IMG/VR virus record: IMGVR_UViG_3300014205_000170
Location: 288,001 to 352,000 of that record
DNA length: 64,000 bases
Reading direction: 5' to 3' (one strand)
Source: a virus
Taxonomy: Duplodnaviria > Caudoviricetes
Numbering within the stretch: position 1 is the stretch's first letter; each line of letters opens with the position of its first letter. Below the pieces are notes generated by a model. That model searched no databases. It was given only the letters and a program-made list of their open reading frames with translations, and was not told the origin of the DNA. A program made the translations under genes and the position numbers. This document shows, piece by piece, positions 4,763 to 64,000 of the stretch.

Positions 4763-5445
4763 TTTTTTAGTTTTTTATATTTCCAAACAAAATTGTTGGA
4801 AGTTTTTAATATACCGCGACAAGCTCTTGAGATACCTGTTGGATTTATATTTAAACCTCTACCCGCTTCTCTAATGCTATTCCACTCTTTTATTAATATT
4901 TTATTTAAATCATATTGCAAAATTGGTTTAGATTTTATTTTTATATTATAATTTGACAAATCCTTTCTAATATTTCCTCGATTAACACTCTTTCCTGTAA
5001 TTGCATTTTTGTGTAATTGTCGCCATTTTTTTTCTCTTCTACATGCTTCTTCTGCTCCATATTTCTCATTCCAAATTTTTAATATCATTGCAACAGAGGG
5101 AGCATTTGCCTTTTTATTGATATTGTACCCATGTTGACTAGAATAAGATTGTTTATAGTTAAGCCAATAATCTTCTCTATTCAACAATAAATTTTCAGAT
5201 ACTGTTTCTAATATTTGAAATTCAAATACTTCTGACCCATATTTATTCCAAGCACGTTGAAGTTTATAATTATTGTGTTTATTTTTAATAAGGGCACGTT
5301 TATGCTGTTTAAATCTCTTGTACATATCATTTGAACTGCCAATATATAATTTTTGACTTAACACATTTATGATAGCATAAATTCCCACTATTTTATTTGT
5401 AACTTTCAATTGTATTAAACTTATTTTTTTTAGTAATTGCTTCAT
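4759..5445 (-). mobile_element. GIY-YIG homing endonuclease with C-terminal NUMOD1-like DNA-binding domain
   Basis: VGIYAIINVLSQKLYIGSS; KPILQYDL...WNSIREAGR...ISRAC; overlaps the 3' end of the upstream GT; start uncertain. Confidence 0.85.
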
Positions 5446-17517: not shown

Positions 17518-18376
17518 AATGTTGTCTTAAAATAGAACTGTTAACGCGACATTTCAATATTTTTAAAGCGCCATCTTTAATTTGTCTTACTCTTTCTCTT
17601 GTTAACTCAAAATATTCACCAATTTCTTCTAAAGTCATAGCCTGTTGACCTAATAAACCAAAATACATACATACAACAGATTTTTGTCTTGGAGTAAGTC
17701 TATCCAACACTTTTTCTAAGTCCGCTTTCATAGACTCTTTATTTAGGTCACTATCAGGACTGATGCTATCTTTGTTTGGTATAAAATCCATTAACGTTAA
17801 AGCGCCATCATCTTCTGAAATAGGAGTTTCTAATGAAACCGTTCTACCGGTCATCATTCTTACATCCTTAACTTTAACATCAATGCCTTCTAAGGATTGT
17901 TGCACTTCATCATCTGTTGGTTCTCTTTCTAAAATTTGTTCAAGATTAGAAATTGCTTTATTTACTTTATATATGGATGAAGTTTGATTGCTTGGAATAC
18001 GAATTAATCTGGATTGCTCTGCAAGTGATTGCATTATAGCTTGTCTAATCCACCAAACAGCATAAGAAATAAATTTAAATCCACGATTAGAATCAAATTT
18101 TTTGGCTGCTTTTATTAAACCCAAATTACCTTCATTCACCAAATCTTCTAAAGGAAGACCACGATTTTGGTATTGTTTTGCGACGGATATAACAAAACGA
18201 AGGTTACCACGAACTAATTTATCTAAGGCTTTATCATCACCGCTAGTAGCTTTTTTGGCTAAATCAATTTCCTGGGTATCAGTAAGGAGAGGAATCTTAC
18301 TGATTTCATTAAAATATTTTGTAATGGATTCACTATCTCTATTAGTTATCCTTTTGGTAATCTTAAGTTGTCTCAT
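17507..18376 (-). CDS. RpoD/SigA-like sigma-70 factor (Bacteroidota type)
   Basis: MRQLKIT, NLRFVISVAKQYQ, GFKFISYAVWWIRQ, TRERVRQIK. Confidence 0.95.
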   Translation of the reverse strand: MRQLKITKRITNRDSESITKYFNEISKIPLLTDTQEIDLAKKATSGDDKALDKLVRGNLRFVISVAKQYQNRGLPLEDLVNEGNLGLIKAAKKFDSNRGFKFISYAVWWIRQAIMQSLAEQSRLIRIPSNQTSSIYKVNKAISNLEQILEREPTDDEVQQSLEGIDVKVKDVRMMTGRTVSLETPISEDDGALTLMDFIPNKDSISPDSDLNKESMKADLEKVLDRLTPRQKSVVCMYFGLLGQQAMTLEEIGEYFELTRERVRQIKDGALKILKCRVNSSILRQHFDA

Positions 18377-35973: not shown

Positions 35974-38295
35974 TTAGAAATCTTCGAAATTTGCTCCTTG
36001 TGGTAAAACTTGGAACGTTAAATCGATAAATTCTAAAGTTGGAGTAGGTTTCAATTGAATTTTTCCAGTTAAAGTATTTGGGTCAGCAGCAGGGCTACTA
36101 TCTAAAACCACTTTAAACGCATCTAAACCTCTTTGATTTTGAATTTGTAATAAGATAGGTTCAACTTTTTGTAAGAATTGGTCTCTAACAGTTGCATCAT
36201 TTTGTTCAAACAATAACGTTTGAGATGCAGCAGCGATTAACCTTCTAACTTGAAGTAAAAGCCTTCTAACATTTACTCTATCAAGAGCAGATTGTTTAAT
36301 TTGTAAAGTTTTTTGACCATAAATAACAACACCTTGTTGAACAAAAGTTGCTACCGGATTAATTCTATCTTGATATAATGTATCTCTATCATCTTGAGTT
36401 AATTTCACATCAGCTTTTTGAACCATAGAAGATACTAGACCTCTATTAAATCCAGCCGGTGCAAACCAAGGATAAGCAACATTATCAGTTAAAGCAATCG
36501 CTCTTACAATTTCCATTGTTGGAGACACATATACAAACTTATTAAAGTTTGAATCGTTGATTTGAACCCATGGCCAATATGTAGCAGCATAGTTAGAATC
36601 AATTCCAGTATCTTGAAGGTCAGATACAGCCTCAGAAGCAGTTCCTTTTACAAGACCTTCTGTGATTCTTGGAGAGTCAACAATATAAATTGAATCAGCT
36701 CTGTTTTCAACAGTAGTAAGTGCATATTTTACAACAGCTTCATGATTTTTATAATCAATTCCAGGAACAGCAAATAAATTTATATCTACTTTTTCAGGAT
36801 TTGACATTTCATCAATTGCATCTTCCATTGCAATTACGTTATTCGCATCAATTGCAGCAGAAGTAAAATCAGGGTATCTAAATTTATTCCAACCATCAAA
36901 ACCACCTGCTGGAACCAAAGTAAATTTACGTTCTGATTTTGTATAAGCGCTTACAGCGATTTCATTACCAAGAACATAACTTGCAGAAGGCGCAGTGCTT
37001 TCCATGTGGAATCCTTTAACAGTAGTTGTACCAGTTGGAGTAGCTCCAAGATATTGCCACAAATCAGTTTCTAAAGTTTTAATTGAATTGCTTACAGAAA
37101 CTTGACTTGAAGTAAAGCCGGTATAACCCAATTCAGAAACACCAAGATAAGTTTTAAATACAGAATCTCCAGAGAAATACACAGTTTTGTAATAAACTTG
37201 TGGACTTGTAGAACCGCTTATTGCAGAACTTCTAAAAGTATATCCTTTAAATCCGGCAGGAACTGTATCAGTTGGATGATTTTCTGCTAAATCCAAAGTC
37301 ACATAATTTGACCTTCTTGGATATTCTTCATCTGTTGTACCAATTGCTTTTGCAATATAATTTGGTTGTGTAGAATCTAATGTAAGACTTCTAAATCTTT
37401 CTAATGTAACAATTGCAGCATCAGTATCATTGTAATCTCTAATGATAACATCAAATGTTTTTGTAATATCATCAATGTTCGCAATAGAAATTTTAATTTC
37501 TGAGTTTGCACTATCTCCATCAGAGATAGAAGTAAATTTAAATAATTCTCTAACAATACCACCTGCAACTTTAGATACAATATAAGGTGTTACTGGAGTT
37601 TGATACCCATCTAAATAATCAGTATAAATAGCATCAGTAGAATAAGTAATTGCAGTATTGATAGTTAATATGTTACCTCTTTGAGCAGCTTCTCTTGTGA
37701 AGTGTGGATAAATAGTTTCAACATATAAACCAAGGTCATTTGTAAATTTCTTAGGATTTTTTCCTAAAACTTTTACGATATAATCATCTCTTGTTTCATC
37801 TAAAGAAACAGTGATAGCACTTAAAGTTTGAGCAGTTAAAGGTCCAGTAGTAGCACTTAAAGTGAAAGGAAGTAATATTCCTGTGATGTTTGCAATTTTT
37901 ACAGCACTCTCAGCAGTTGCTAAGAAAGAAACTCCTTCGTTAGCAGATTTACTTCTAATAACACATAAAGGTGAACCACTAAATGTTCCACCACTAGCTT
38001 GAATAATCCAAGCAGCAGAGTTAGTAAAACCTTCATTACCAAGAACTCTTGTAATAGTAAGTTCTTGTGATTGTTTTAAAAATGAATTTGCAACATACGG
38101 CAATTGAATTCTAGTGTCGGTTGTACCGAATCTAGCCAAATATTCGTCTGTACTTGAAATTTTGATAGGTTCAAAAGCTGGTCCTTTTGTTGTTTCACCA
38201 ACAAGACCCAATCTTGTGATACCTATTTGAGATGCAAAAACTGAGAAATCTTGTTCTCTTGTGTAAACACCGGGTGATACGAAAACTGTTGCCAT
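35974..38295 (-). CDS. Tail sheath protein (T4 gp18-like)
   Basis: FVSPGVYTREQD, PWFAPAGFNRG, RINPV, GQKTLQ, DRVNVRRLL. Confidence 0.95.
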   Translation of the reverse strand: MATVFVSPGVYTREQDFSVFASQIGITRLGLVGETTKGPAFEPIKISSTDEYLARFGTTDTRIQLPYVANSFLKQSQELTITRVLGNEGFTNSAAWIIQASGGTFSGSPLCVIRSKSANEGVSFLATAESAVKIANITGILLPFTLSATTGPLTAQTLSAITVSLDETRDDYIVKVLGKNPKKFTNDLGLYVETIYPHFTREAAQRGNILTINTAITYSTDAIYTDYLDGYQTPVTPYIVSKVAGGIVRELFKFTSISDGDSANSEIKISIANIDDITKTFDVIIRDYNDTDAAIVTLERFRSLTLDSTQPNYIAKAIGTTDEEYPRRSNYVTLDLAENHPTDTVPAGFKGYTFRSSAISGSTSPQVYYKTVYFSGDSVFKTYLGVSELGYTGFTSSQVSVSNSIKTLETDLWQYLGATPTGTTTVKGFHMESTAPSASYVLGNEIAVSAYTKSERKFTLVPAGGFDGWNKFRYPDFTSAAIDANNVIAMEDAIDEMSNPEKVDINLFAVPGIDYKNHEAVVKYALTTVENRADSIYIVDSPRITEGLVKGTASEAVSDLQDTGIDSNYAATYWPWVQINDSNFNKFVYVSPTMEIVRAIALTDNVAYPWFAPAGFNRGLVSSMVQKADVKLTQDDRDTLYQDRINPVATFVQQGVVIYGQKTLQIKQSALDRVNVRRLLLQVRRLIAAASQTLLFEQNDATVRDQFLQKVEPILLQIQNQRGLDAFKVVLDSSPAADPNTLTGKIQLKPTPTLEFIDLTFQVLPQGANFEDF

Positions 38296-52969: not shown

Positions 52970-53248
52970 ATGAAAACATTCATTATAAAATATAAATGTC
53001 AATTTTGTTCTCGGTTAAACTTTGAAAAACCGATGCCTCATAAATGTGTTGGTGGTTATCGAAGAAGAAAACTCATTTGGCACCAATATTTAGTACCTAA
53101 CCAAATTGTTCTGGTTGAAAAATTTTTCCCCGATAATCCAAGAAAAAACGATTATTATTTCATTTTAAAAAACACATTACCATTTTTTTCTTTAAATTCG
53201 TATCTAATAAAACGAAAAGGAGAAAAAAATAATGAAGAAACTATTTAA
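52970..53248 (+). CDS. Hypothetical protein (QIVLVEK motif)
   Basis: CxxC...HxC. Confidence 0.45.
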   Translation: MKTFIIKYKCQFCSRLNFEKPMPHKCVGGYRRRKLIWHQYLVPNQIVLVEKFFPDNPRKNDYYFILKNTLPFFSLNSYLIKRKGEKNNEETI

Positions 53249-54056
53249 AAATGACTGGGTTTCATTTTACATTGGTATTGACAGAAGTAGGTTTACTTTA
53301 AGTCCAGCTTCTTATTTTGATGAAAGATTCTACATCATTTTAACCCCAACTCTATTAATTCCTATTATAGGTGTGTTTTTTACCGGTTTAAGCTTCTGGT
53401 CTCTTGTATGGTTATTATTCATTCCATATGGTTATGGATGTCTATATATTCATCTTCCTATATATTCAGGTCTTGACGAATGTGACCCTCCGGAATATGG
53501 TTTTTATTTTTTTGGAGAAAATCTTTTAAGAATAAATTCATTTGTTGTTTGTAGGGGGAAAACTAGTAATAAATACTTTAACATGCCATGGTATTGGGTT
53601 TGGGAACGAACTAGTAAATTAAAAAAAGATGGTACTTGGCAACATGATTTGAGAAAAAAGAAATTTGATTTTTATACTAAAGAATGGGAAAACGAAGTTT
53701 GGAAAGAAGAATATCCGTTTACTTATATTTTAAAGAATGGTAATATACAACAAAGACTAGCGATAATTACTGTGCATGAAATGGAATGGCGTTGGAAAGC
53801 TTTAAAAATTTTACCATTTCCACGGATGATTCGTAAAAGTATCGATATTCAATTTGAATATGGGGGTCCAATTGAAAGAGAAATATTTTTTGAAAAACAA
53901 GGAAATAAATCCAAGTATTTAGAAAAATACACCGGAGAAGTTGGTGAAAGAACTGGAGGTTGGAAAGGCGGAACCACTGGGTGTAGTTACAGTATGCGAC
54001 AAAATGAAACTCCTCTTGAAACTTTAAGAAGAATGGAAAAAGAAAGAAAATTTTAG
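53232..54056 (+). CDS. Hypothetical membrane protein (REIFFEK motif)
   Basis: Transmembrane segment; GEVGERTGGWKGG. Confidence 0.6.
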   Translation: MKKLFKNDWVSFYIGIDRSRFTLSPASYFDERFYIILTPTLLIPIIGVFFTGLSFWSLVWLLFIPYGYGCLYIHLPIYSGLDECDPPEYGFYFFGENLLRINSFVVCRGKTSNKYFNMPWYWVWERTSKLKKDGTWQHDLRKKKFDFYTKEWENEVWKEEYPFTYILKNGNIQQRLAIITVHEMEWRWKALKILPFPRMIRKSIDIQFEYGGPIEREIFFEKQGNKSKYLEKYTGEVGERTGGWKGGTTGCSYSMRQNETPLETLRRMEKERKF

Positions 54057-54128: not shown

Positions 54129-54215
54129 ATGATTACTAAAAATACATATCACTATTTGACACTTAATGTGGTCGTGGCGCACTTTTTACAAGTCGTCCAG
54201 CCGGACTATATTTAA
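54129..54215 (+). CDS. Val-rich attenuator leader peptide (28 aa)
   Basis: MITKNTYHYLTLNVVVAHFLQVVQPDYI*; Val codons GTG GTC GTG...GTC GTC. Confidence 0.8.
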   Translation: MITKNTYHYLTLNVVVAHFLQVVQPDYI

Positions 54216-54240
54216 ACTTTAGTGTATTATAATACATTCA

Positions 54241-54275
54241 GACTCCGGCTAAACAAGTCGGAGTTTTTTATTTTT
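54241..54275 (+). terminator. Attenuator terminator upstream of ValRS
   Basis: actccggct/agtcggagt plus T-run; the 5' arm can alternatively pair with agccgga in the leader. Confidence 0.85.
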
Positions 54276-54289
54276 AAAAAATTAATTTT

Positions 54290-55642
54290 ATGAAAACAGA
54301 TAATAAATACAAAATAGATATGCCACCACCAACGATAAGTGGTAAATTACATATGGGTCACGCTTTTTCTTATACACAAATGGATTTTATAGCGCGATAT
54401 CAACGAATGAAAAATAAAGAGTTGATTTACCCATTTGGTTATGATAACAATGGAATACCAACAGAAAAGTTTGCTTACAAAAAAAGAATAACAGATACAC
54501 AAAAGATAATCGAACTTTCAAATGAAACTTCTAAAATGTATATGGAATTTTTCAATAATATAAATATGGGGTTTTCTAATCATAGTTATAACACATTTGA
54601 TAAGCTTTCCACTGAAATTGCCTTACTGTCTTTTTATGACCTCAAAGAGAAAGGGTTGCTTTATAAAGGAAAAGAAAATTATTCTTTTTGTACTTCTTGT
54701 AATAAATCGATTCCTAATTCTGAAATTGAAAATAATAAACACATTAGAGATAATGGTGATATTATTGAAAAAGAAGGGGAAGGTTATTTTATTAAAACCA
54801 AAGACTTTAAACAAGAACTTATAGAACAAATTGAAAAAATAGAATGGAAACCTGAAAAATTCAAGAATAGAATTTTAAGTTGGATTAATGATATGGATAG
54901 AGATTGGTCAATTGCTAGACGCAGAGATTATGGAATTTCAATTCCAGGAGAATCTGAACTAAAGTTTGATACATGGTTTACCTCTTCTTTAACTCCTCAA
55001 ATAGCATGGGCATCTCATACCGGTATTGCTTCTTTAGAATGTCCTATTTTTGATTTAAGATTTCAAGCACATGATATTATTAGTACTTGGGCGCTATATA
55101 CCATCATTAAATCTTATCACCACAATAAACAAATACCATGGAAACAGATTATTATCACTGGACATGCGCTTGATAAAAATGGTGATAAACTTGCAAAGAG
55201 TAAAGGAAATTGTACCACCACTGATTATTACATAAAAGAATTTGGTGGAGAAGGAATAAGATATTGGGCAGCTCAAACTCAAATTGGAACCGATACATTA
55301 TTAGATGATGAAACAATGAAAAATTGTAAAAAGCTTATGATTAAACTTAAAAATGCATATAAATTCATAGAGTTTCAAAAATCCAAAGAATGGCTTGGTT
55401 TCAATAAAGAGAAAGAAATTGAGTGGGGAACAATTAAAATAAAAATAGAAGAATATTTTGAACAAGGAGATTGGGCAAAAGCATTTGAAGAATTGTTTAA
55501 TTTCTTCTGGAAAAGATTTTGCGATATTTTTATTGAAGATTCAAAAAAAGAGAGTTGTTCACAAAGCTTAGAGCTAATTTTAAATGAAATGATGATTTAT
55601 TGGCAAATTTTCTTCCCAAAAATTCAAGAAAACATAAAATAA
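54290..55642 (+). CDS. valS: Minimal valyl-tRNA synthetase
   Basis: PPPTISGKLHMGHA (HIGH), DFIARYQRM, FDTWFTSS, QAHDII, KLAKSKGN (KMSKS); Val leader upstream. Confidence 0.85.
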   Translation: MKTDNKYKIDMPPPTISGKLHMGHAFSYTQMDFIARYQRMKNKELIYPFGYDNNGIPTEKFAYKKRITDTQKIIELSNETSKMYMEFFNNINMGFSNHSYNTFDKLSTEIALLSFYDLKEKGLLYKGKENYSFCTSCNKSIPNSEIENNKHIRDNGDIIEKEGEGYFIKTKDFKQELIEQIEKIEWKPEKFKNRILSWINDMDRDWSIARRRDYGISIPGESELKFDTWFTSSLTPQIAWASHTGIASLECPIFDLRFQAHDIISTWALYTIIKSYHHNKQIPWKQIIITGHALDKNGDKLAKSKGNCTTTDYYIKEFGGEGIRYWAAQTQIGTDTLLDDETMKNCKKLMIKLKNAYKFIEFQKSKEWLGFNKEKEIEWGTIKIKIEEYFEQGDWAKAFEELFNFFWKRFCDIFIEDSKKESCSQSLELILNEMMIYWQIFFPKIQENIK

Positions 55643-55826
55643 AACTGAAATTATTCTATTGATTTATAGAGAATTAAGAAAAAAAACATAAAAAAACTTT
55701 GTTTTATTGAAACTTTACCTTAAATTTGACGTTAGAATATAAAATTGTACTATTTATTATAAGTTGAACCCCATATAAATGGGAGATACAGTGCGGGGTC
55801 TCTCACAGCTTATTTAGAATTAGAAA

Positions 55827-55928
55827 ATGAAAAATGTAAATACATACACGGTTAATACACTAAGACAATTAGTGTTAGAACAACTTATAGAAAGTTGTCC
55901 AGCTGGGATATGTTCGTTTACAAGTTAA
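55827..55928 (+). CDS. Attenuator leader peptide (33 aa) of the tRNA array
   Basis: MKNVNTYTVNTLRQLVLEQLIESCPAGICSFTS*; contains the antiterminator agctggg. Confidence 0.7.
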   Translation: MKNVNTYTVNTLRQLVLEQLIESCPAGICSFTS

Positions 55929-55951
55929 TTATATATAACTAAACGTTCTTC

Positions 55952-55984
55952 AAGAACCCCGGCTTTAAAAGGTCGGGGTTTTTT
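55952..55984 (+). terminator. Attenuator terminator upstream of the tRNA array
   Basis: aaccccggct/ggtcggggtt plus T-run, ending about 14 nt before the first tRNA. Confidence 0.85.
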
Positions 55985-55998
55985 GTTTTATTGATATT

Positions 55999-56070
55999 GC
56001 CTTATTAGCTCAGTTGTAAGAGCGCTCGTTTCGTAAACGAGAGGTCATCAGGTCGAACTGATATGAGGCT
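55999..56070 (+). tRNA. tRNA-Thr(CGT), atypical T-loop
   Basis: Acceptor gccttat/atgaggc; ctcgt-ttCGTaa-acgag. Confidence 0.75.
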
Positions 56071-56081
56071 CAAAAAAATAT

Positions 56082-56168
56082 GCCTTCGTGGTGAAATTGG
56101 ACAGAGACACAAGGGTCTTAAAAACCCTCGGATTTAATTCCATGCGGATTCGAGTTCCGCCGAAGGTA
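56082..56168 (+). tRNA. tRNA-Leu(TAA)
   Basis: agggt-ctTAAaa-accct; long variable arm. Confidence 0.9.
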
Positions 56169-56181
56169 CAAAAAAAGAGAA

Positions 56182-56349
56182 ATGGGAAAAGTAGAAAAGA
56201 AAAAATTAAGATTACAAGAAAGGATTCAAACTTTAGAAAATGAATTAAGAACTTCTTTGACAAAAAAAACATCTGATGTAAAAGAAATCAATGTTGCTGT
56301 TCATCAAAGAAAAATTTATGATTTAAAATTAGAATTACAAAAAATGTAA
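56182..56349 (+). CDS. Small coiled-coil protein within the tRNA array (55 aa)
   Basis: MGKVEKKKLRLQERIQTLENELR...LELQKM*. Confidence 0.55.
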   Translation: MGKVEKKKLRLQERIQTLENELRTSLTKKTSDVKEINVAVHQRKIYDLKLELQKM

Positions 56350-56355
56350 CAACAC

Positions 56356-56429
56356 GCCTTCGTAGCACAACGGATTAGTGTCTCTGTTTTCTAAACAGGT
56401 GGGTGGAGGTTCGAATCCTCTCGAAGGTA
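56356..56429 (+). tRNA. tRNA-Arg(TCT)
   Basis: tctgt-ttTCTaa-acagg; ggttcgaatcc. Confidence 0.88.
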
Positions 56430-56449
56430 CAAATGGTTCTTTGACATAT

Positions 56450-56534
56450 GCCAGAATGGTGAAATCGTGTAGACACACCATCCTCAAAAGATGGCGCTAT
56501 AAAAAGCGTGAGAGTTCGAATCTCTCTTCTGGTA
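56450..56534 (+). tRNA. tRNA-Leu(CAA)
   Basis: ccatc-ctCAAaa-gatgg; variable arm. Confidence 0.9.
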
Positions 56535-56539
56535 CAATA

Positions 56540-56614
56540 GCTCCCTTAGCTCAGCTGGTTAGCAGCATCAGACTCATAATCTGAGGGTCGTTGGTTCGAG
56601 CCCAACAGGGAGCA
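56540..56614 (+). tRNA. tRNA with CAT anticodon (Met or Ile2)
   Basis: tcaga-ctCATaa-tctga. Confidence 0.9.
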
Positions 56615-56619
56615 CAAAT

Positions 56620-56704
56620 GTTACGGTATGCAAACTGGCTGAAGCACCTAGATTTTCAATCTAGTTTCGAAAGAAAATTGCAGGTTCGAACCCCGTCCGT
56701 AATA
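56620..56704 (+). tRNA. tRNA with TTC (Glu) anticodon and long variable arm
   Basis: ctaga-ttTTCaa-tctag; extra arm tttcgaaagaaa. Confidence 0.75.
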
Positions 56705-56709
56705 CAAAT

Positions 56710-56784
56710 GGCCACATAGCTCAATCGCGTTGGAGCAGGATGCTTATATCATCAAGGTTGGGAGTTCAAATCTCTCTGTGGCTA
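56710..56784 (+). tRNA. tRNA-Ile(TAT)
   Basis: gatg-ctTATat-catc; acceptor ggccaca/tgtggct. Confidence 0.8.
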
Positions 56785-56797
56785 CAAAAAAATAAAT

Positions 56798-56879
56798 GCT
56801 CCGTTGGCGGAATGCAGACGCACTTGGCTTAGGACCAAGCTCTCGAAAGGGAATGAAGATTCGAATTCTTCACGGAGTA
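56798..56879 (+). tRNA. tRNA-Leu(TAG)
   Basis: cttgg-ctTAGga-ccaag; variable arm. Confidence 0.9.
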
Positions 56880-56959
56880 CAAAATTGTTCTTTGAATATT
56901 TGAAATACATGTTATTTTAGAAATATAGTGTGTATAACATTTTTTGTCTATTTATAATC

Positions 56960-57421
56960 ATGAGAAATGATATAATAAAACAAAAAAAAATAATTTTGAA
57001 ATTAATAAATGAAAATAGACCAAAATCATTTATTTGTAAGTTTTTAGATTGTAGACCTCTTACGTTAGATAATTATTTAAAAAAGTGGAACATAAATTAT
57101 GTTGGGAATAAAGGAGGAAAGGGATATAAAATTTCACCGATAAAAAAAACAGCTATTCAATATATGAATAGCACTGGACATATAAGTTCTTATAAATTAG
57201 GGAAAAAACTTATAGAAGATGGATTAAAAGAAAAAAAATGCGAATGTTGTAATTTAACAAAATGGATAAATAAAGACATACCTTTAGAATTACATCACAA
57301 AGATGGAAATAGGTTTAATAATGAATTACAAAATTTACAATTATTATGTCCTAATTGTCATGCTTTAACTGAAAATTATGGTAGCAAAAATAAAAAAAAT
57401 AAAAATGGCCCATTCGTCTAG
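56960..57421 (+). mobile_element. HNH homing endonuclease inserted in the tRNA array
   Basis: CECC...LELHHKDGN...NLQLLCPNCH; 3' end overlaps tRNA-Glu. Confidence 0.88.
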
Positions 57422-57479
57422 GGGTTTAGGACGCTGCCCTTTCACGGCAGAAACACGGATTCGAATTCCGTATGGGCTA
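57407..57479 (+). tRNA. tRNA-Glu(TTC)
   Basis: ctgcc-ctTTCac-ggcag. Confidence 0.92.
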
Positions 57480-57488
57480 CAATAAAAT

Positions 57489-57561
57489 GCTCTTATCGAC
57501 AAGTGGTTTAAGTCACCGCTTTCTCAAAGCGGAGTCACGGGTTCAAGTCCCGTTAAGAGTA
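57489..57561 (+). tRNA. tRNA-Glu(CTC)
   Basis: ccgct-ttCTCaa-agcgg. Confidence 0.88.
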
Positions 57562-57566
57562 CAAAT

Positions 57567-57645
57567 GCCGATGTGATGTAATGGTAGCCATACTGGTTTA
57601 AGAAGCCAGTGCGAAAGCGTTTCGGTTCGAGTCCGAACATCGGTA
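57567..57645 (+). tRNA. tRNA-Leu(AAG)
   Basis: ctggt-ttAAGaa-gccag; short extra arm gcgaaagc. Confidence 0.85.
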
Positions 57646-57661
57646 CAAAAAAAGGAAAAAA

Positions 57662-57991
57662 ATGGAAACAACAGAAGTAAAAATTAATGCAATCGAAGTA
57701 AAAAAAGAACTGTATAAAAGTAAGGTAAATGCAAAATTAAGTCATTTTGACAAACCAAACTTGTATTACACAGTAGAATTGTCTACGGGAACATATCAGT
57801 TTCCTATTGCAACTACTGTAAAAAAAACATTAACTCTAATGGATGGAGATGAAGTTATTTCAATGTTTGACATTGATAAAGCTGCTCCGGACTTAGCAGG
57901 CGCTAACTTTGGTTTAGAGGTAAAAGCCTCTGATTTGAACCGTTGGATTGAGAGAGCAATAAAGAACGACGATTTTATAAAAATCAGTTAG
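57662..57991 (+). CDS. Hypothetical protein
   Basis: ORF. Confidence 0.55.
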   Translation: METTEVKINAIEVKKELYKSKVNAKLSHFDKPNLYYTVELSTGTYQFPIATTVKKTLTLMDGDEVISMFDIDKAAPDLAGANFGLEVKASDLNRWIERAIKNDDFIKIS

Positions 57992-58028
57992 TAGATTTTT
58001 TTGTGTTTATATTTATATATAAACGCAA

Positions 58029-58442
58029 ATGAAAAAATTTCTGTTAATATTTTTTATAGTTTTAAGTTTAGCGTGCAAATCTCAAACTAAAAATTTGTGG
58101 CAAAAAATTCCAGATGACGCAAAACATGTTTATTCTGGTGTGATAATTACAATGGTAACTGGTGATTTAGTTTATAAATATTCAAAAGGAAGAACAGGAT
58201 TAGCGGTAGGAGTTGGTTTTTTATCAGGAGTAACCGCAGGAGTGGCAAAAGAATTGATATGGGACAAGTGGATGGGAAAAGGCGTTCCGAGTAAGTGGGA
58301 TGCATTTAGTACTGCGTGGGGAGCAGGAATAGGCACTATATCACTTAGGGTAATGATAGATGTTAGAGAACGAAAGCAGTATGATGAATACTCAATAGAA
58401 AAATTAGGTAAAAAGAAAAAAAGAAGACATAGAAATGGTTAA
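58029..58442 (+). CDS. Putative lipoprotein/membrane protein (YfiM-like)
   Basis: Lipobox-like SLAC, DDAKH, GVAKELIWD, WDA. Confidence 0.6.
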   Translation: MKKFLLIFFIVLSLACKSQTKNLWQKIPDDAKHVYSGVIITMVTGDLVYKYSKGRTGLAVGVGFLSGVTAGVAKELIWDKWMGKGVPSKWDAFSTAWGAGIGTISLRVMIDVRERKQYDEYSIEKLGKKKKRRHRNG

Positions 58443-58515
58443 CATAACAATTAATATTCAACAACAACAGCAACAACAAACTCTAAATAAGGGTTCCGGA
58501 ATTGCTTTGTCTTGA
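58435..58515 (+). CDS. Poly-Gln attenuator leader peptide (26 aa)
   Basis: MVNITINIQQQQQQQTLNKGSGIALS*; 6 CAA + 1 CAG. Confidence 0.88.
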   Translation: MVNITINIQQQQQQQTLNKGSGIALS

Positions 58516-58537
58516 CGTTATTAATTTAACAAATTAC

Positions 58538-58571
58538 AAAAAGCCTGGAACTTAAAGTTTCAGGCTTTTTT
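58538..58571 (+). terminator. Attenuator terminator upstream of the tRNA-Gln cluster and GlnRS
   Basis: aagcctggaact/agtttcaggctt plus T-run; the 5' arm can pair with ggttccgg in the leader. Confidence 0.88.
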
Positions 58572-58577
58572 ATTTAT

Positions 58578-58648
58578 TGTCCTATAGTGTAATGGCAGCA
58601 CAAGAGATTTTGACTCTCTTAGTCTAGGTTCGAGTCCTAGTGGGACAA
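58578..58648 (+). tRNA. tRNA-Gln(TTG)
   Basis: agaga-ttTTGac-tctct. Confidence 0.92.
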
Positions 58649-58653
58649 CATAT

Positions 58654-58725
58654 TCCTCGTTGGTCTAATGGCAATGACGTTGGTTTTTGACACCAAAAGT
58701 GGTAGTTCGATTCTATCACGAGGAA
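58654..58725 (+). tRNA. tRNA-Gln(TTG)
   Basis: ttggt-ttTTGac-accaa. Confidence 0.88.
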
Positions 58726-58730
58726 CAAAT

Positions 58731-58803
58731 TGCTCCATAGTATAATGGCCTATTATCGCTGCCTTTGAAGCAGAAGACCTTGGTTCGATTCCAAGTGGAG
58801 CAT
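58731..58803 (+). tRNA. tRNA-Gln(TTG)
   Basis: ctgc-ctTTGaa-gcag. Confidence 0.88.
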
Positions 58804-58810
58804 CTAAAAT

Positions 58811-58883
58811 TGCCTTATAGTATAATGGTTATTATTCTCGTTTCTGAGACGATGAGATGTTGGTTCGAATCCAGCTTAGGTAA
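58811..58883 (+). tRNA. tRNA-Gln(CTG)
   Basis: tcgt-ttCTGag-acga. Confidence 0.82.
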
Positions 58884-58906
58884 CAAACAAAAAAAATCGT
58901 AACTTT

Positions 58907-59392
58907 ATGGTTATGAAAACGAGAGAAGAACAAATAAAAAATGCTACAGTTCAAATAGGCAATACTGTTAAGGTTAATAAGCGATTATTGGATAAAAAAC
59001 TATCAATAGAACTTTTTAAAGAAACTGCGGAAGAATTATTTAAAGAACATTCAGAATATTATAAGCCAAAACATTTTAATACTATTGTTTATAAATTGTT
59101 TTCTATGAAAAACGTTTTTGTTGCAACAGCTCCATGTGAAGATTTTTTTGATAAAAAAGGAAAATGGATTACAGAAATACCAACTCGTTCACACAGAAGC
59201 TTAGAAGCATTTGATATTATTGATTCTATTCAAAATTATTTAAATGAAGGAGCATTGGTATATTTATATACATTTTATAGTATGAAACAGGATATTGTTA
59301 CAGGTTATAGAAATAATGATTTTACAGACACAATAGTAGAACCAAATGTTGATACATATTGGTGGAGATTAATAGTAAAAAAAGAAGAATAA
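58907..59392 (+). CDS. Hypothetical protein in the Gln operon
   Basis: ORF between the tRNA-Gln genes and GlnRS. Confidence 0.55.
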   Translation: MVMKTREEQIKNATVQIGNTVKVNKRLLDKKLSIELFKETAEELFKEHSEYYKPKHFNTIVYKLFSMKNVFVATAPCEDFFDKKGKWITEIPTRSHRSLEAFDIIDSIQNYLNEGALVYLYTFYSMKQDIVTGYRNNDFTDTIVEPNVDTYWWRLIVKKEE

Positions 59393-59394
59393 TT

Positions 59395-61011
59395 ATGAAT
59401 TTTATTGAAGAAAAAATAATTGAAAAAGGAAATGTTGAGAAATTTAAACTTAGATTTCCACCAGAAAATAATGGCCACCTTCATGTTGGTCATGCGAAAT
59501 CCATATGTCTTAACTTTGGGTTGTCTGAAAAATACAATAGACCTTGTAATTTAAGATTTGATGATACAAATCCTTCTAATGAATCAGATGAATATACAAA
59601 GTCTATTATAAAAGATATTGAATGGTTAAATTATAAGCCGGCAGAAATTTTACATACTTCTGACTATTTCTCTTTTCTTTATGAATCAGCCATAAAATTA
59701 ATCAAAAAAGGATTGGCATATGTTGACGATTCAACATCAGAAGAAATTGCAAAATTAAAAGGTACTCCAACTATGTCTGGAAAACCGTCTCCTTATTATT
59801 CGCGTACCGTTGAAGAAAATTTAGATTTGTTCGAAAGAATGAAAAACGGAGAGTTTACAGAAGGTTCAAAAATTCTTAGAGCTAAAATTGATATGGCTTC
59901 TCCTAATATGATTTTAAGAGACCCAGTGATGTATAGAATTATAAATACAACACATCATCATACAGGAGATGTTTGGAAAATTTATCCAATGTATGATTTC
60001 GCACATCCTTTATCAGATTATACTGAAGGAATCACAGATTCTTTATGTACTTTAGAATTTGAAGTTCATAGACCACTTTATAATTGGTTTTTGGAAAATT
60101 TGAATTTACCAAATCCATTGCCGGAAGAAACAGAATTTGCTCGTTTAAACATTGAATATACAGTACTTTCAAAACGTAAATTAAAAAGATTGGTTGAAGA
60201 GAAATTTGTTTCAGGATGGGACGACCCAAGAATGCCAACCATTTCAGGATTAAGAAGAAGAGGATATACTCCAACAGCTATTAAAGATTTTTGTGAACGA
60301 GTTGGCGTTACAAAAAAAGAATCTTTAATAAGTTATTTGCTTTTAGAAGAATGTTTAAGAAATGACTTAAATAAATCTACCAATAGATTTATGGGAATAA
60401 TGAATCCTGTTAAAATAACAATTACAAACTGGAATAATGGCGTTGAAATGGTTGAAGTTGAGAACAATCCAGAGGATGAAACTGCCGGAAAAAGATTAAT
60501 TCCTTTTTCAAAAGAATTGTGGATTGATAGAGACGATTTTAGAGAAGAAGCTGATAATAAATTTTTCAGATTAAAATTAGGGAGTGAAGTTAGATTGAAA
60601 GGTGCTTATGTCATAAAAGCAGAAGAAGTGATTAAGAATGGAGATGTTATTACGGAAATAAAATGTACATATGACCCTTTAACGAAATCTGGATTAGGCA
60701 CTAACAGAAAAGTTAAAGGAACAATTCATTGGGTTTCTTGCGAACATGGAGTTAAGGCAGAAGTTAGAGAATATTCAAAATTATTCACTCATATCACACC
60801 GGATAAGTCTGAAGATGATTTTGTAAACTATATTGATGCCAACTCTTTGGTTATTAATAACAATGCAATATTTGAACCGGCTGTTTTAAATTGTATTCCT
60901 GGAAAACCAGTTCAAATGATAAGAGTAGGTTATTACGTAAGAGATACGAATGATGAATCTCTTATTTTTAATAAGACCGTGTCTCTTAAGGAGGATAAGT
61001 ATAAATCATAG
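59395..61011 (+). CDS. glnS: Glutaminyl-tRNA synthetase
   Basis: RFPPENNGHLHVGHAKS, LRFDDTNP, IYPMYDFAH, SLCTLEF, LSKRKL, WDDPRMPTISGLRRRG; start placed at MNFIEE. Confidence 0.95.
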   Translation: MNFIEEKIIEKGNVEKFKLRFPPENNGHLHVGHAKSICLNFGLSEKYNRPCNLRFDDTNPSNESDEYTKSIIKDIEWLNYKPAEILHTSDYFSFLYESAIKLIKKGLAYVDDSTSEEIAKLKGTPTMSGKPSPYYSRTVEENLDLFERMKNGEFTEGSKILRAKIDMASPNMILRDPVMYRIINTTHHHTGDVWKIYPMYDFAHPLSDYTEGITDSLCTLEFEVHRPLYNWFLENLNLPNPLPEETEFARLNIEYTVLSKRKLKRLVEEKFVSGWDDPRMPTISGLRRRGYTPTAIKDFCERVGVTKKESLISYLLLEECLRNDLNKSTNRFMGIMNPVKITITNWNNGVEMVEVENNPEDETAGKRLIPFSKELWIDRDDFREEADNKFFRLKLGSEVRLKGAYVIKAEEVIKNGDVITEIKCTYDPLTKSGLGTNRKVKGTIHWVSCEHGVKAEVREYSKLFTHITPDKSEDDFVNYIDANSLVINNNAIFEPAVLNCIPGKPVQMIRVGYYVRDTNDESLIFNKTVSLKEDKYKS

Positions 61012-61146
61012 GAGAAAAGTAGTTAATTCTATAAAAATCATATTTTTTTGAACATTTTCAATGTTAAGTTTTTTATATATTGCTTTTTTTCATATATTTG
61101 TTTATATTTATCTAACATACAGATAACAATTTAATAACACAGAAAT

Positions 61147-61542
61147 ATGAAAAAGCTAATATTATTATTAATCTTCTTTGTAACATTTACATCATTTGCT
61201 ACAAATATTACTGAGAAAAACATTGATTATTATTCTAATGGTAATGTGAAAACTAAACTTTTCAAATATGAAGAATATTCTACATTAGTTAAGTATTATG
61301 AAACTGGCAAAATTCAAGAAATTGGATATTTTGATTTATCTGGTAATAAAACCGGTCATTGGCTTAGTTTTTATGATAATGGAAGAATGATGTCAGAAGC
61401 TAATTTTAAAAATGGCAGAAAGCATGGAGAGTGGAAATCTTATGACACTAATGGAAAAATGATTGTTTTTATTAAATATAAACGTGGTCAAAAAATTCTG
61501 GGTTGTCTTGTAAATGATAAAAATGAATTGGTAGTTCGTTAA
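61147..61542 (+). CDS. Secreted MORN-variant repeat protein
   Basis: Signal peptide; YYSNGN, YYETGK, FYDNGR, KHGEWKSY. Confidence 0.75.
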   Translation: MKKLILLLIFFVTFTSFATNITEKNIDYYSNGNVKTKLFKYEEYSTLVKYYETGKIQEIGYFDLSGNKTGHWLSFYDNGRMMSEANFKNGRKHGEWKSYDTNGKMIVFIKYKRGQKILGCLVNDKNELVVR

Positions 61543-62767: not shown

Positions 62768-63273
62768 ATGAAAATAAGTACACTTTTTAAATATATTGCA
62801 CTTGTGTGTTGTATTACGAATTTGATTTCATCAATTATTTGGTCTTTTGTAGTACATGATTATAATAAAGCTTATGAAAGGTCAGAAATGGCAATGGTCT
62901 TTTTGCTATTTTATGGTGTTTTATATACTATAGATAAAAATAAATGTCAGAAACCATAATTAAAACAATTCATAAAGTAAGAGTTTCTGGTAGATGGGTT
63001 GAGTTTTGGTTTAAAGAAAATTTATCTAAAGACAAAAATTACAAAAGTGAATGGGGAGAGTTTATAGGAGAAGAGTGTTTCCATGCTTGTGTAAAAATTA
63101 GTAAGTTATTTCAGGTTTTGAACGAAAAAGAAAATGAACCCATAAGAGAAGAAATGGTAGCAGCAAAACTTAAGAACATTAAGACGGTTTGGGTACATAG
63201 TCACTTTAAAGGTAATTTAGAATTTGTAAGTTTTTTAGAGGGGGTACGAACAGTTTTAATAGAAAAAAAATAA
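62768..63273 (+). CDS. Two small hypothetical proteins (62768-62959 membrane protein; 62944-63273 ending RTVLIEKK)
   Basis: Overlapping ORFs in operon. Confidence 0.5.
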
Positions 63274-64000
63274 TGAATGATAAAATAGATATATTGAAAT
63301 CTTTAGAATCATATTGGAATTGGGATGATGAAGCTTTAGGGTGCATCTCAGCCCTAAAAGGTTGTCAGCAAAGCAAGATTCATCATGCTGAAGGAGATGT
63401 TTATGTTCATACTCAAATGGTGACCAACGAAATGGAACAAGCTCTTAAAACAAAAAACTTTAATCAAACTCAAAAAGATACTTTATTATTATCAGCTCTT
63501 TTACATGATATTGCAAAACCAGACACAACTTATATTGATGAAGAGTCTAAGGATTGGGTAAGTCCGGGTCATGCAAAATTAGGAGAAAAACTTGCAAGAG
63601 AATTGTTGTTTAAAAAATTCCCCTTTTTACAGAGAGAAGAAATTTCTGCACTTGTTCGATATCACGGTTTACCTATTTGGGCAGAAGTAAAACCTAATCC
63701 GGATAAAGCTATTATAGAAGCTTCTTTAAGATGTAATTTAAATGAACTTTCATTATTGGCTGAATGTGATTTTAAAGGAAGAATATGTCAAGATTTAGAT
63801 GATATGCTTCTTCGTATTGAAATATTTAAAGAGAGAGCAGAAAAGCTTAATTGTTTAAATCAACCATATCCATTTGCAAATGACTGGTCTAGATTACATT
63901 GTTTTCGTAGAGATAGTTATCATGCTGCCGAAATATGGGAACCCAAAAAAGGTTGGTTAACAATAATGTGTGGTTTGCCTGGTTCTGGTAAAAACACATG
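63273..64000 (+). CDS. HD-domain plus P-loop kinase protein (PNK-like RNA end-healing; partial)
   Basis: Manual translation: HHAEGDVYVHT, LLHDIAK, GHA, ECDFKGR, then MCGLPGSGKNT at the window end. Confidence 0.8.
   Translation, partial: MNDKIDILKSLESYWNWDDEALGCISALKGCQQSKIHHAEGDVYVHTQMVTNEMEQALKTKNFNQTQKDTLLLSALLHDIAKPDTTYIDEESKDWVSPGHAKLGEKLARELLFKKFPFLQREEISALVRYHGLPIWAEVKPNPDKAIIEASLRCNLNELSLLAECDFKGRICQDLDDMLLRIEIFKERAEKLNCLNQPYPFANDWSRLHCFRRDSYHAAEIWEPKKGWLTIMCGLPGSGKNT

Follow-up and report, generated by a model that had tools for sequence, protein, structure and literature searches.

A putative glutamine-specific leader-peptide attenuator ahead of tRNA-Gln genes and glnS in huge phages

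A stretch of 64,000 nucleotides (nt) from a tailed phage (Caudoviricetes; IMG/VR record IMGVR_UViG_3300014205_000170, positions 288,001 to 352,000; hereafter the window) carries a unit for glutamine decoding in which a short open reading frame (ORF) with seven consecutive Gln codons and an intrinsic terminator precede four transfer RNA (tRNA)-Gln genes, an ORF of 161 amino acids (aa; ORF161), and a gene for glutaminyl-tRNA synthetase (GlnRS, encoded by glnS). Comparison with related phages suggests that the leader and terminator form a ribosome-mediated transcription attenuator, specific for Gln, that would gate the tRNA-Gln genes, ORF161, and glnS; the probability of this reading is put at roughly 0.8. 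The sequence elements, their conservation, their alternative pairings, and their co-variation were observed directly in the DNA. An initial annotation of the window had listed the same parts, and the leader, the terminator, the four tRNA-Gln genes, ORF161, and GlnRS were all found at the positions that it gave (Table 1). It had also proposed induction under a shortage of Gln-tRNA, and this proposal gains support at the level of sequence: over 26 loci, the leader is conserved along with the terminator and an antiterminator that competes with it, and the three change together.

In the proposed switch, transcription would arrive from upstream and the 26-codon leader would be translated co-transcriptionally. 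When Gln-tRNA(Gln) is plentiful, the ribosome would cross the seven CAA/CAG codons and reach the stop, segment 2 would be covered or recaptured by segment 1, and the terminator would form, such that RNA polymerase halts 6 nt ahead of the first tRNA. When charged tRNA-Gln is scarce, the ribosome would stall on the Gln run and melt the segment 1:2 hairpin, whereupon the freed segment 2 would pair with the emerging 5' arm of the terminator, block it, and permit read-through into the four tRNA-Gln genes, ORF161, and GlnRS. The added tRNA and synthetase would then restore charging and close the switch, completing a negative feedback loop. A switch of this kind would have its leader translated, its terminator functional with the polymerase in use, and its read-through responsive to the charging of Gln-tRNA.

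Table 1. Features of the Gln unit and of related leader-terminator units (window positions unless stated otherwise).
Feature	Positions	Strand	Remarks
Upstream 137-aa ORF	58029..58442	+	signal-peptide-like N-terminus; ends ...AAT GGT TAA
Leader ORF, 26 codons	58435..58515	+	ATG 58435, TGA 58513-58515; Q at positions 9-15
Run of seven Gln codons	58459..58479	+	six CAA, one CAG: CAA CAA CAA CAG CAA CAA CAA
Segment 1:2 hairpin	58479..58495	+	AACUCU / AGGGUU, -3.8 kcal/mol; segment 1 = 58479-58484, directly after the Gln run
Segment 2, antiterminator 5' strand	58490..58509	+	pairs with the terminator 5' arm
Intrinsic terminator	58538..58571	+	15-bp stem and T-tract; segment 3 58538-58552, loop 58553-58555, segment 4 58556-58570
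tRNA-Gln(UUG) no. 1	58578..58649	+	U1:A72, A73; most host-like (72-78% to Flavobacteriales tRNA-Gln); 94% identical phage orthologues
tRNA-Gln(UUG) no. 2	58654..58726	+	U1:A72, A73
tRNA-Gln(UUG) no. 3	58731..58804	+	U1:A72, U73, anticodon loop CU-UUG-AA
tRNA-Gln(CUG)	58811..58884	+	U1:A72, A73
ORF161 (161 aa)	58907..59392	+	lineage-specific insert between tRNAs and glnS
Glutaminyl-tRNA synthetase, 538 aa	59395..61011	+	HIGH-type motif HVGH, KMSKS-type motif VLSKR
Val leader-terminator unit	54129-54266		28-codon ORF, five Val codons (VVV, VV), ends 49 nt before the T-tract; terminator 54240-54266
450-aa class I synthetase, most ValRS-like	54290-55642		directly downstream of the Val unit; far under family cut-offs
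Third leader-terminator unit	55827-55983		33-codon leader; terminator 55952-55983; antiterminator z -4.3
Sister units in the source genome (whole-genome coordinates)	419729-419871, 422198-422320, 427205-427405		

When the GlnRS protein was used to search IMG/VR and the JGI metagenomes, about 40 phage-type loci were obtained, with a total of 26 distinct leader sequences, that of the window included. In these 26 loci, which belong to related huge phages, the leader-terminator unit lies just upstream of tRNA-Gln, of GlnRS, or of both, and comprises a short ORF with 3-7 tightly packed and mostly consecutive Gln codons and, behind it, a terminator (-11.7 to -20.6 kcal/mol). An ATG, an in-frame Gln run, and a stop are present in all 26 leaders, and the Gln run is the most conserved feature of otherwise divergent peptides. 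A total of 154 Gln codons fall in the leader frame versus 37 and 11 in the other two frames; 127 of the 154 are CAA and 27 are CAG, swapped synonymously between leaders, and such exchange within the leader frame is the pattern expected from selection on codons. Recurrence of the unit in 26 loci is not a matter of chance. Under the identical detection rule, the unit was found in none of 134 bacterial-type GlnRS loci (about 700 kb). That result, along with the lack of any run of five or more Gln residues among 483 long ORFs of the source genome (in which Gln accounts for 3.3% of codons), rules out a chance or low-complexity origin of the run. Inheritance of the attenuator along with a captured host glnS was likewise considered and rejected, as the 134 loci lacking the unit are of Flavobacteriales type and a native Flavobacterium tRNA-Gln pair has no leader upstream.

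GlnRS sequences from leader-bearing loci are 57-77% identical to one another. In a phylogenetic tree, the phage GlnRS form a single clade (Shimodaira-Hasegawa-like support 100) that is separate from Flavobacteriales, and leaders occur on the deepest branches of this clade, such that the element is old in the phage lineage. The closest public relatives, the 'uncultured phage' genomes LR756502 (642 kb) and LR745206 (635 kb), show a matching order: seven Gln codons within a short ORF come first, followed by a strong terminator, by a tRNA-Gln that begins 2 nt past the T-tract, and by GlnRS. All tRNAs typed by ARAGORN between the leader and GlnRS are tRNA-Gln in 24 of 24 loci, at one to four copies. 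One locus (L025) contains an extra gene with an unreadable four-base anticodon at this place, and in another (L011) the leader and terminator stand directly ahead of GlnRS with no tRNA. No terminator interrupts the operon in 23 of the 24 leader-bearing loci, and GlnRS starts 14-33 nt after the last tRNA in 15 of them; in the window, no further terminator was found between 58571 and 61011. Judged by these sequences, the unit would consist of a leader, an attenuator, one to four tRNA-Gln genes, an optional insert, and glnS.

The quality of a joint MAFFT alignment of the leader subfamilies was too low for column-wise counts of paired positions, and therefore duplex tests on individual sequences were combined with an alignment of 17 sequences from the main subfamily. 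When folded without the 3' arm of the terminator, its 5' arm (segment 3) pairs with a segment around the leader stop codon in 9 of 13 sequences. The duplex of segments 2 and 3 is stronger than in dinucleotide shuffles in 26 of 26 leaders (mean z -3.5), with values of -15.6 kcal/mol and z -3.8 in the window. Moreover, all 17 leaders compared paired better with their own terminator than with dissimilar terminators (Wilcoxon p = 1.5e-4), and segment 2 changes to match the terminator between subfamilies, as represented by the window, L016/L017, L012, L011, L001, and L010. In the main subfamily, AUUAAUC (segment 1), directly after the Gln run, pairs with GAUUGAU (segment 2, which contains the UGA stop) in a hairpin that is 79% paired. 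Segment 2 alternatively pairs with UCAAUC atop the terminator 5' arm, the usual partner of which is AUUGA (segment 4), and an additional helix forms between a conserved GUAUUGU motif 3' of the stop and codons that precede the Gln run. The OFF structure of this subfamily is 81% paired, versus 29-46% when the partner is slid, and the antiterminator is 83% paired, versus 18-51% when slid. Within the terminator stem, co-variation is free in the middle, where two pairs have undergone nine double changes each. The top of the stem (UCAAU/AUUGA) has to fit two alternative partners and is conserved. Each copy would thus have the four-segment layout of a ribosome-mediated attenuator. The window terminator itself has a predicted stability of -17.6 to -18.8 kcal/mol and ends 6 nt before the first tRNA, and a longer helix also folds between the 5' half of the window leader and 58504-58526.

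Several observations weigh against the attenuator model. In the window, the segment 1:2 hairpin is weak, with 6 base pairs (bp) at -3.8 kcal/mol, and the leader stop lies 3 nt past the end of segment 2 rather than within it, and therefore a ribosome that terminates there would mask segment 2 less directly than it would in the main subfamily. In that subfamily, the antiterminator is conserved and does not co-vary, such that the case for co-variation depends on comparison between subfamilies of related sequences. The full-length fold favors the terminator in every case and we infer the ON state; a full fold that favors the terminator is normal for kinetic switches. No Shine-Dalgarno sequence is present ahead of the leader, as is usual in Bacteroidota. 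Lastly, the occurrence of CAG in a leader has no significant association with the presence of tRNA-Gln(CUG) (Fisher p = 0.31).

It should be considered whether the unit regulates anything at all. The hairpin could simply end the upstream gene, with the poly-Gln ORF a micropeptide or low-complexity spacer and the tRNAs transcribed from promoters of their own. The window terminator does come after a protein-coding gene, and a scan for sigma-70-type promoters (33 sites versus 34.8 expected) is uninformative in this AT-rich DNA. However, the T-tract is separated from the tRNA-Gln by 2 nt in 10 of the first 13 loci and by 2-14 nt nearly everywhere (72 nt in L015), which is too short for a promoter. 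In most relatives the leader is preceded by other tRNAs instead of a protein gene, segment 2 changes in step with the terminator, and the unit is linked to tRNA-Gln and GlnRS and to nothing else. An absence of regulation is accordingly considered very improbable. In the window, the initial annotation had noted that the leader ATG overlaps the end of the upstream gene, and this was confirmed: it falls within the last codons of the 137-aa ORF. As the start of the leader overlaps the stop of that ORF, for which family searches gave no match, the two are probably co-transcribed and translationally coupled.

A second possibility is that the switch reads general translation capacity or the coupling of transcription and translation, in the manner of pyrBI or ermC, rather than Gln-tRNA. 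Any slowdown of the leading ribosome would favor the antiterminator, which is consistent with such a sensor. Yet the Gln run is what is best conserved in peptides that otherwise diverge, and the leaders of sister units (see below) are written in other amino acids, in keeping with the tRNA array behind each of them; this reading seems highly unlikely. Even less credence is given to protein-mediated autoregulation in the manner of thrS, whereby GlnRS or another RNA-binding protein would bind the CAA repeats or the conserved UAUUGUCUAAA element independently of translation. Its appeal lies in the motif GUAUUGU(C/U)UAAA, which is conserved after the stop in most leaders and is otherwise accounted for solely by its pairing with codons that precede the Gln run. 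Against it, the ATG, the frame, and the stop are conserved, CAA and CAG are exchanged synonymously, and the leader contains no tRNA-like element. Among known RNA families, the Rfam model of the Thr operon leader (Thr_leader, RF00506) aligns end to end over 58443-58574 with 31.3 bits versus a gathering score of 55, and the element is therefore an analogue of Thr_leader and not a member. No other Rfam cis-regulatory family reached its threshold in 55500-61300, and the T-box model gave no match in Rfam scans of the same region, in which matches were listed to E = 1.

Within a wider family of putative attenuators, the most clear-cut member is the Gln unit, which is devoted to a single amino acid. 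The source genome (G000) has six leader-terminator units in which the stop codon lies 49-60 nt before the T-tract: one belongs to the Gln unit itself, three stand ahead of mixed tRNA arrays, one ahead of a truncated ValRS-like gene, and one ahead of a tRNA-Lys cluster (KKKKK leader). Among the tRNAs called by ARAGORN in G000, a terminator at most 12 nt upstream is present for just two, namely the first tRNA-Gln and the first tRNA-Lys, and both have leaders with runs of cognate codons. The tRNA regions of five relatives (loci L189-L208) were compared with those of G000, giving 36 units over six genomes; the five other units of G000 and about 30 in the relatives share this geometry, with the stop 44-66 nt ahead of the T-tract. 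Amino acids carried by the downstream tRNAs are over-represented in the leaders (mean z 3.15 for the own array versus -0.48 for dissimilar arrays), and in 28 of the 36 units the own array ranks above 90% or more of the dissimilar ones (pairing-shuffle p <= 2e-4); it should be noted that the 36 units are orthologous across genomes rather than independent events, and that the effect is seen in about eight unit types. For example, a leader containing SRSRSSRS precedes tRNAs for Ser, Arg, Ser, Ser, Arg, and Ser. Only the Gln unit, among those examined, includes an intact synthetase.

Two further units lie within the window. The Val unit has an antiterminator z of -2.8, and the ValRS-like protein encoded downstream aligns only to the parts of ValRS models that flank their middle third; its sequence therefore probably lacks the editing (CP1) domain. 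The third unit is followed by an array with tRNAs from 55999 onward, namely Thr(CGU), Leu, Arg, Leu, Met, Glu, Ile, Leu, and more, the composition of which is matched weakly by the leader. The first tRNA of this array (55999-56070) was missed by ARAGORN and scored 56 bits with Rfam. An ORF of 163 aa (56930-57421) with a weak match to HNH endonucleases splits the tRNA array between tRNA-Leu(UAG) and tRNA-Glu. A similar layout was observed in the chromosome of Chryseobacterium sp. KCF3-3 (L209, 2764500-2770500), where a 16-tRNA array has a terminator at about position 2310 of the locus that ends a few nt from the first tRNA. Here, a 41-codon ORF ends 47 nt before the T-tract, and amino acids served by the array (H, N, I, F, R, Y, L, Q, E, P, T, and C) are abundant in this leader. 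Bacteroidota genomes may thus share the design, in tRNA arrays that perhaps sit on mobile elements.

A broader and tentative proposal is that of a codon-resolved 'tRNA-on-demand' network, in which nearly every tRNA array of huge phages is gated by an attenuator with a matched leader that senses depletion of host tRNAs, whether by defense nucleases or by translation shut-off, and releases divergent, possibly nuclease-resistant isodecoders. If true, the network would provide the virus with a private decoding system of its own, under feedback control and with leaders that combine several amino acids. No description of composite multi-amino-acid leaders before tRNA arrays was found in the literature searched.

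All four tRNA-Gln genes of the window were detected by ARAGORN, scored 46-65 bits with the Rfam tRNA model (cut-off 29), and display the features of bacterial tRNA-Gln, namely a cloverleaf, a UUG or CUG anticodon, U1:A72, U35, G36, and A37. The Flavobacteriales tRNA-Gln genes examined have U1:A72 and A73 likewise. The initial annotation held that the copies are not recent duplicates, and this is borne out by a mutual identity of only 62-68%. Counterparts in other phages are closer, with 82-94% identity for the UUG copies and a best match of 77% for the CUG copy, and the four genes are therefore old, separately maintained paralogues. Their anticodon loops, UU-UUG-AC (twice), CU-UUG-AA, and UU-CUG-AG, differ from those of Flavobacteriales tRNA-Gln (UU-UUG-GU and UU-UUG-AU) at positions 32, 37, and 38. 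A role of the tRNAs in recoding stop codons was ruled out, as the anticodons are standard UUG and CUG and ARAGORN calls for the genome include no stop-reading anticodon (three were unreadable). Unusual tRNA-like genes were also encountered. Several tRNA-Gln genes in relatives are unusually long (82-90 nt), and others have odd anticodon loops, either four-base ('agaa' or 'ttga') or two-base; both kinds are represented among G000 4818-4892, 17799-17873, and 37497-37586, L001 3917-4001, L016 1589-1678, and L025.

The divergence of the tRNA-Gln genes invites a counter-defense role, whereby the shortage of charged tRNA would be caused by a host nuclease or toxin that cleaves tRNA-Gln and the divergent copies would be resistant replacements switched on by the attenuator. 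This idea would supplement the attenuator model rather than replace it. Precedents exist in other systems, in which altered anticodon loops allow phage tRNAs to escape anticodon nucleases (PMC10264068, PMC11555353, PMC11464382), and the idea also draws on the host-unlike loops of the window, on the separate conservation of each tRNA-Gln paralogue across phages, and on a neighborhood that includes an RNA ligase, an HD-domain ORF with a P-loop-like motif, and an Acb3-like inhibitor of the cyclic-oligonucleotide-based anti-phage signaling system (CBASS). However, divergent duplicates with the same anticodon are not specific to Gln: across the genome they include Lys UUU (four copies), Phe (three copies), Asn, Val, Ile, Asp, Ala, Glu, and Arg (two copies), affect at least 10 anticodons, and mostly share 49-70% identity (Pro 84%). 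Sister attenuators span nearly all amino acids, which fits general control of tRNA supply equally well. A counter-defense function is thus regarded as rather unlikely.

The product of 59395-61011 is, by its sequence, a genuine GlnRS (glnS equivalog): it aligns at full length to TIGR00440 glnS with 654.8 bits (cut-off 425.8) and matches Pfam families PF00749, PF03950, and PF20974. The ORF that separates it from the tRNAs, ORF161, had been suggested to be an accessory or anti-defense factor. This suggestion is not supported, because ORF161 is absent from every related Gln operon and its homologues occur in other contexts. Searches of Pfam and PHROGs and a word-based homology search matched nothing besides ORF161 itself, and tblastn detected no copy in any related locus and no second copy in the genome. 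An exhaustive HMMER search recovered 18 representatives (best 1e-41, 48-55% identity) on other phage-like contigs, near genes for a GatB/YqeY-domain protein, RtcB, and ADP-ribosylglycohydrolase. Related Gln operons have either no insert at this place or unrelated inserts of 65-291 aa. Structure prediction and neighborhood analysis of ORF161 gave a confident fold without a clear match in the PDB, and varied phage contexts. A single-sequence fold was unusable (predicted local distance difference test, pLDDT, 39), ESM Atlas gave no usable match, and an AlphaFold model built with a 15-sequence alignment reached pLDDT 96. For this model, Foldseek returned nothing from the PDB at E <= 0.001, and the best VIA-align result (Z 5.3, to parts of HK97-type capsid proteins) was within background. 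ORF161 is best described as variable cargo on the regulated transcript that belongs to a small phage family.

The source genome is 518,809 bp long with direct terminal repeats, a G+C content of 30%, and 51-55 tRNA genes. The nearest cellular GlnRS sequences share 55-58% identity with the phage enzyme and nearly all belong to Flavobacteriales (e.g., Chryseobacterium and Flavobacterium). In a survey of huge phages, Bacteroidetes hosts were predicted for the largest genomes, the four largest of which were 634, 636, 642, and 735 kb, and up to 67 tRNAs and 15 synthetases were found per phage (Al-Shayeb et al., 2020; PMC7162821). Downstream of GlnRS, the window encodes an RNA ligase (PF09414; 61962-62765) and an HD-domain ORF (63273-63998) in which a P-loop-like GxxGxGK motif, read by eye in the translation, follows the HD domain; together these are reminiscent of phage tRNA-repair gene sets. 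Farther upstream, a 274-aa ORF (53232-54056) matches the CBASS inhibitor family Acb3 (PF25187) with 128 bits.

Leader-peptide attenuation is textbook knowledge for bacterial amino-acid operons and for pheST, the latter controlled in Escherichia coli by ribosome stalling through a leader ORF with cognate codons (the pheM leader peptide) and an intrinsic terminator. The phage Gln unit resembles pheST in placing a short cognate-codon leader and an intrinsic terminator ahead of the cognate aminoacyl-tRNA synthetase, whereas pheST senses Phe, is chromosomal, controls no tRNA genes, and has no sequence similarity to the phage unit. With the trp, his, leu, and thr attenuators the phage unit shares a four-segment logic of regulatory codons, a putative anti-antiterminator, an antiterminator, and a terminator, but those attenuators regulate biosynthetic enzymes and the phage unit would regulate tRNAs and a synthetase, that is, the molecule sensed. 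T-boxes similarly sense charging and place aminoacyl-tRNA synthetase genes under a choice between terminator and antiterminator; they differ in binding uncharged tRNA directly with no need for translation, whereas the phage unit has a conserved ORF. In bacilli, His leader peptides have been predicted ahead of hisS paralogues (Naville and Gautheret, 2010; PMC2965389). These, too, represent a putative leader-peptide attenuator of a synthetase-family gene, but are bacterial, specific for His, and control no tRNA genes. Studies of anti-defense phage tRNA sets (T5 versus PARIS and retrons; mycobacteriophage) concern phage tRNAs that include some with host-unlike anticodon loops, and charge-sensing control of phage tRNA genes is not described in them. 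Nor is a regulatory layer described for the tRNA and synthetase repertoires of huge phages, for which the main text of the survey (PMC7162821) lacks the words 'attenuat' and 'leader'; 'attenuat' and 'leader peptide' are absent from a 2026 review of jumbo phages, and Rfam 15 has no family matching the leader element. The class of mechanism is thus known, and, as far as could be found in the literature searched, neither an attenuator specific for Gln, nor one encoded by a virus, nor one that gates tRNA genes has been described, such that each of these three features appears to be new.

If the attenuator model is true, huge phages would not merely carry tRNAs and synthetases but would regulate them by feedback on the supply of charged tRNA. 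This bears on the question of why phages carry tRNAs, and specifically on whether these serve on-demand supply or rescue as opposed to constitutive compensation for codon usage. The Gln unit would then offer a natural and compact means of sensing whether Gln-tRNA is charged. From the sister units, a general design rule suggests itself, according to which the composition of a leader matches the tRNA array downstream, and this rule could guide the annotation of regulation in megaphages that have not been cultivated, as well as in tRNA arrays of bacteria.

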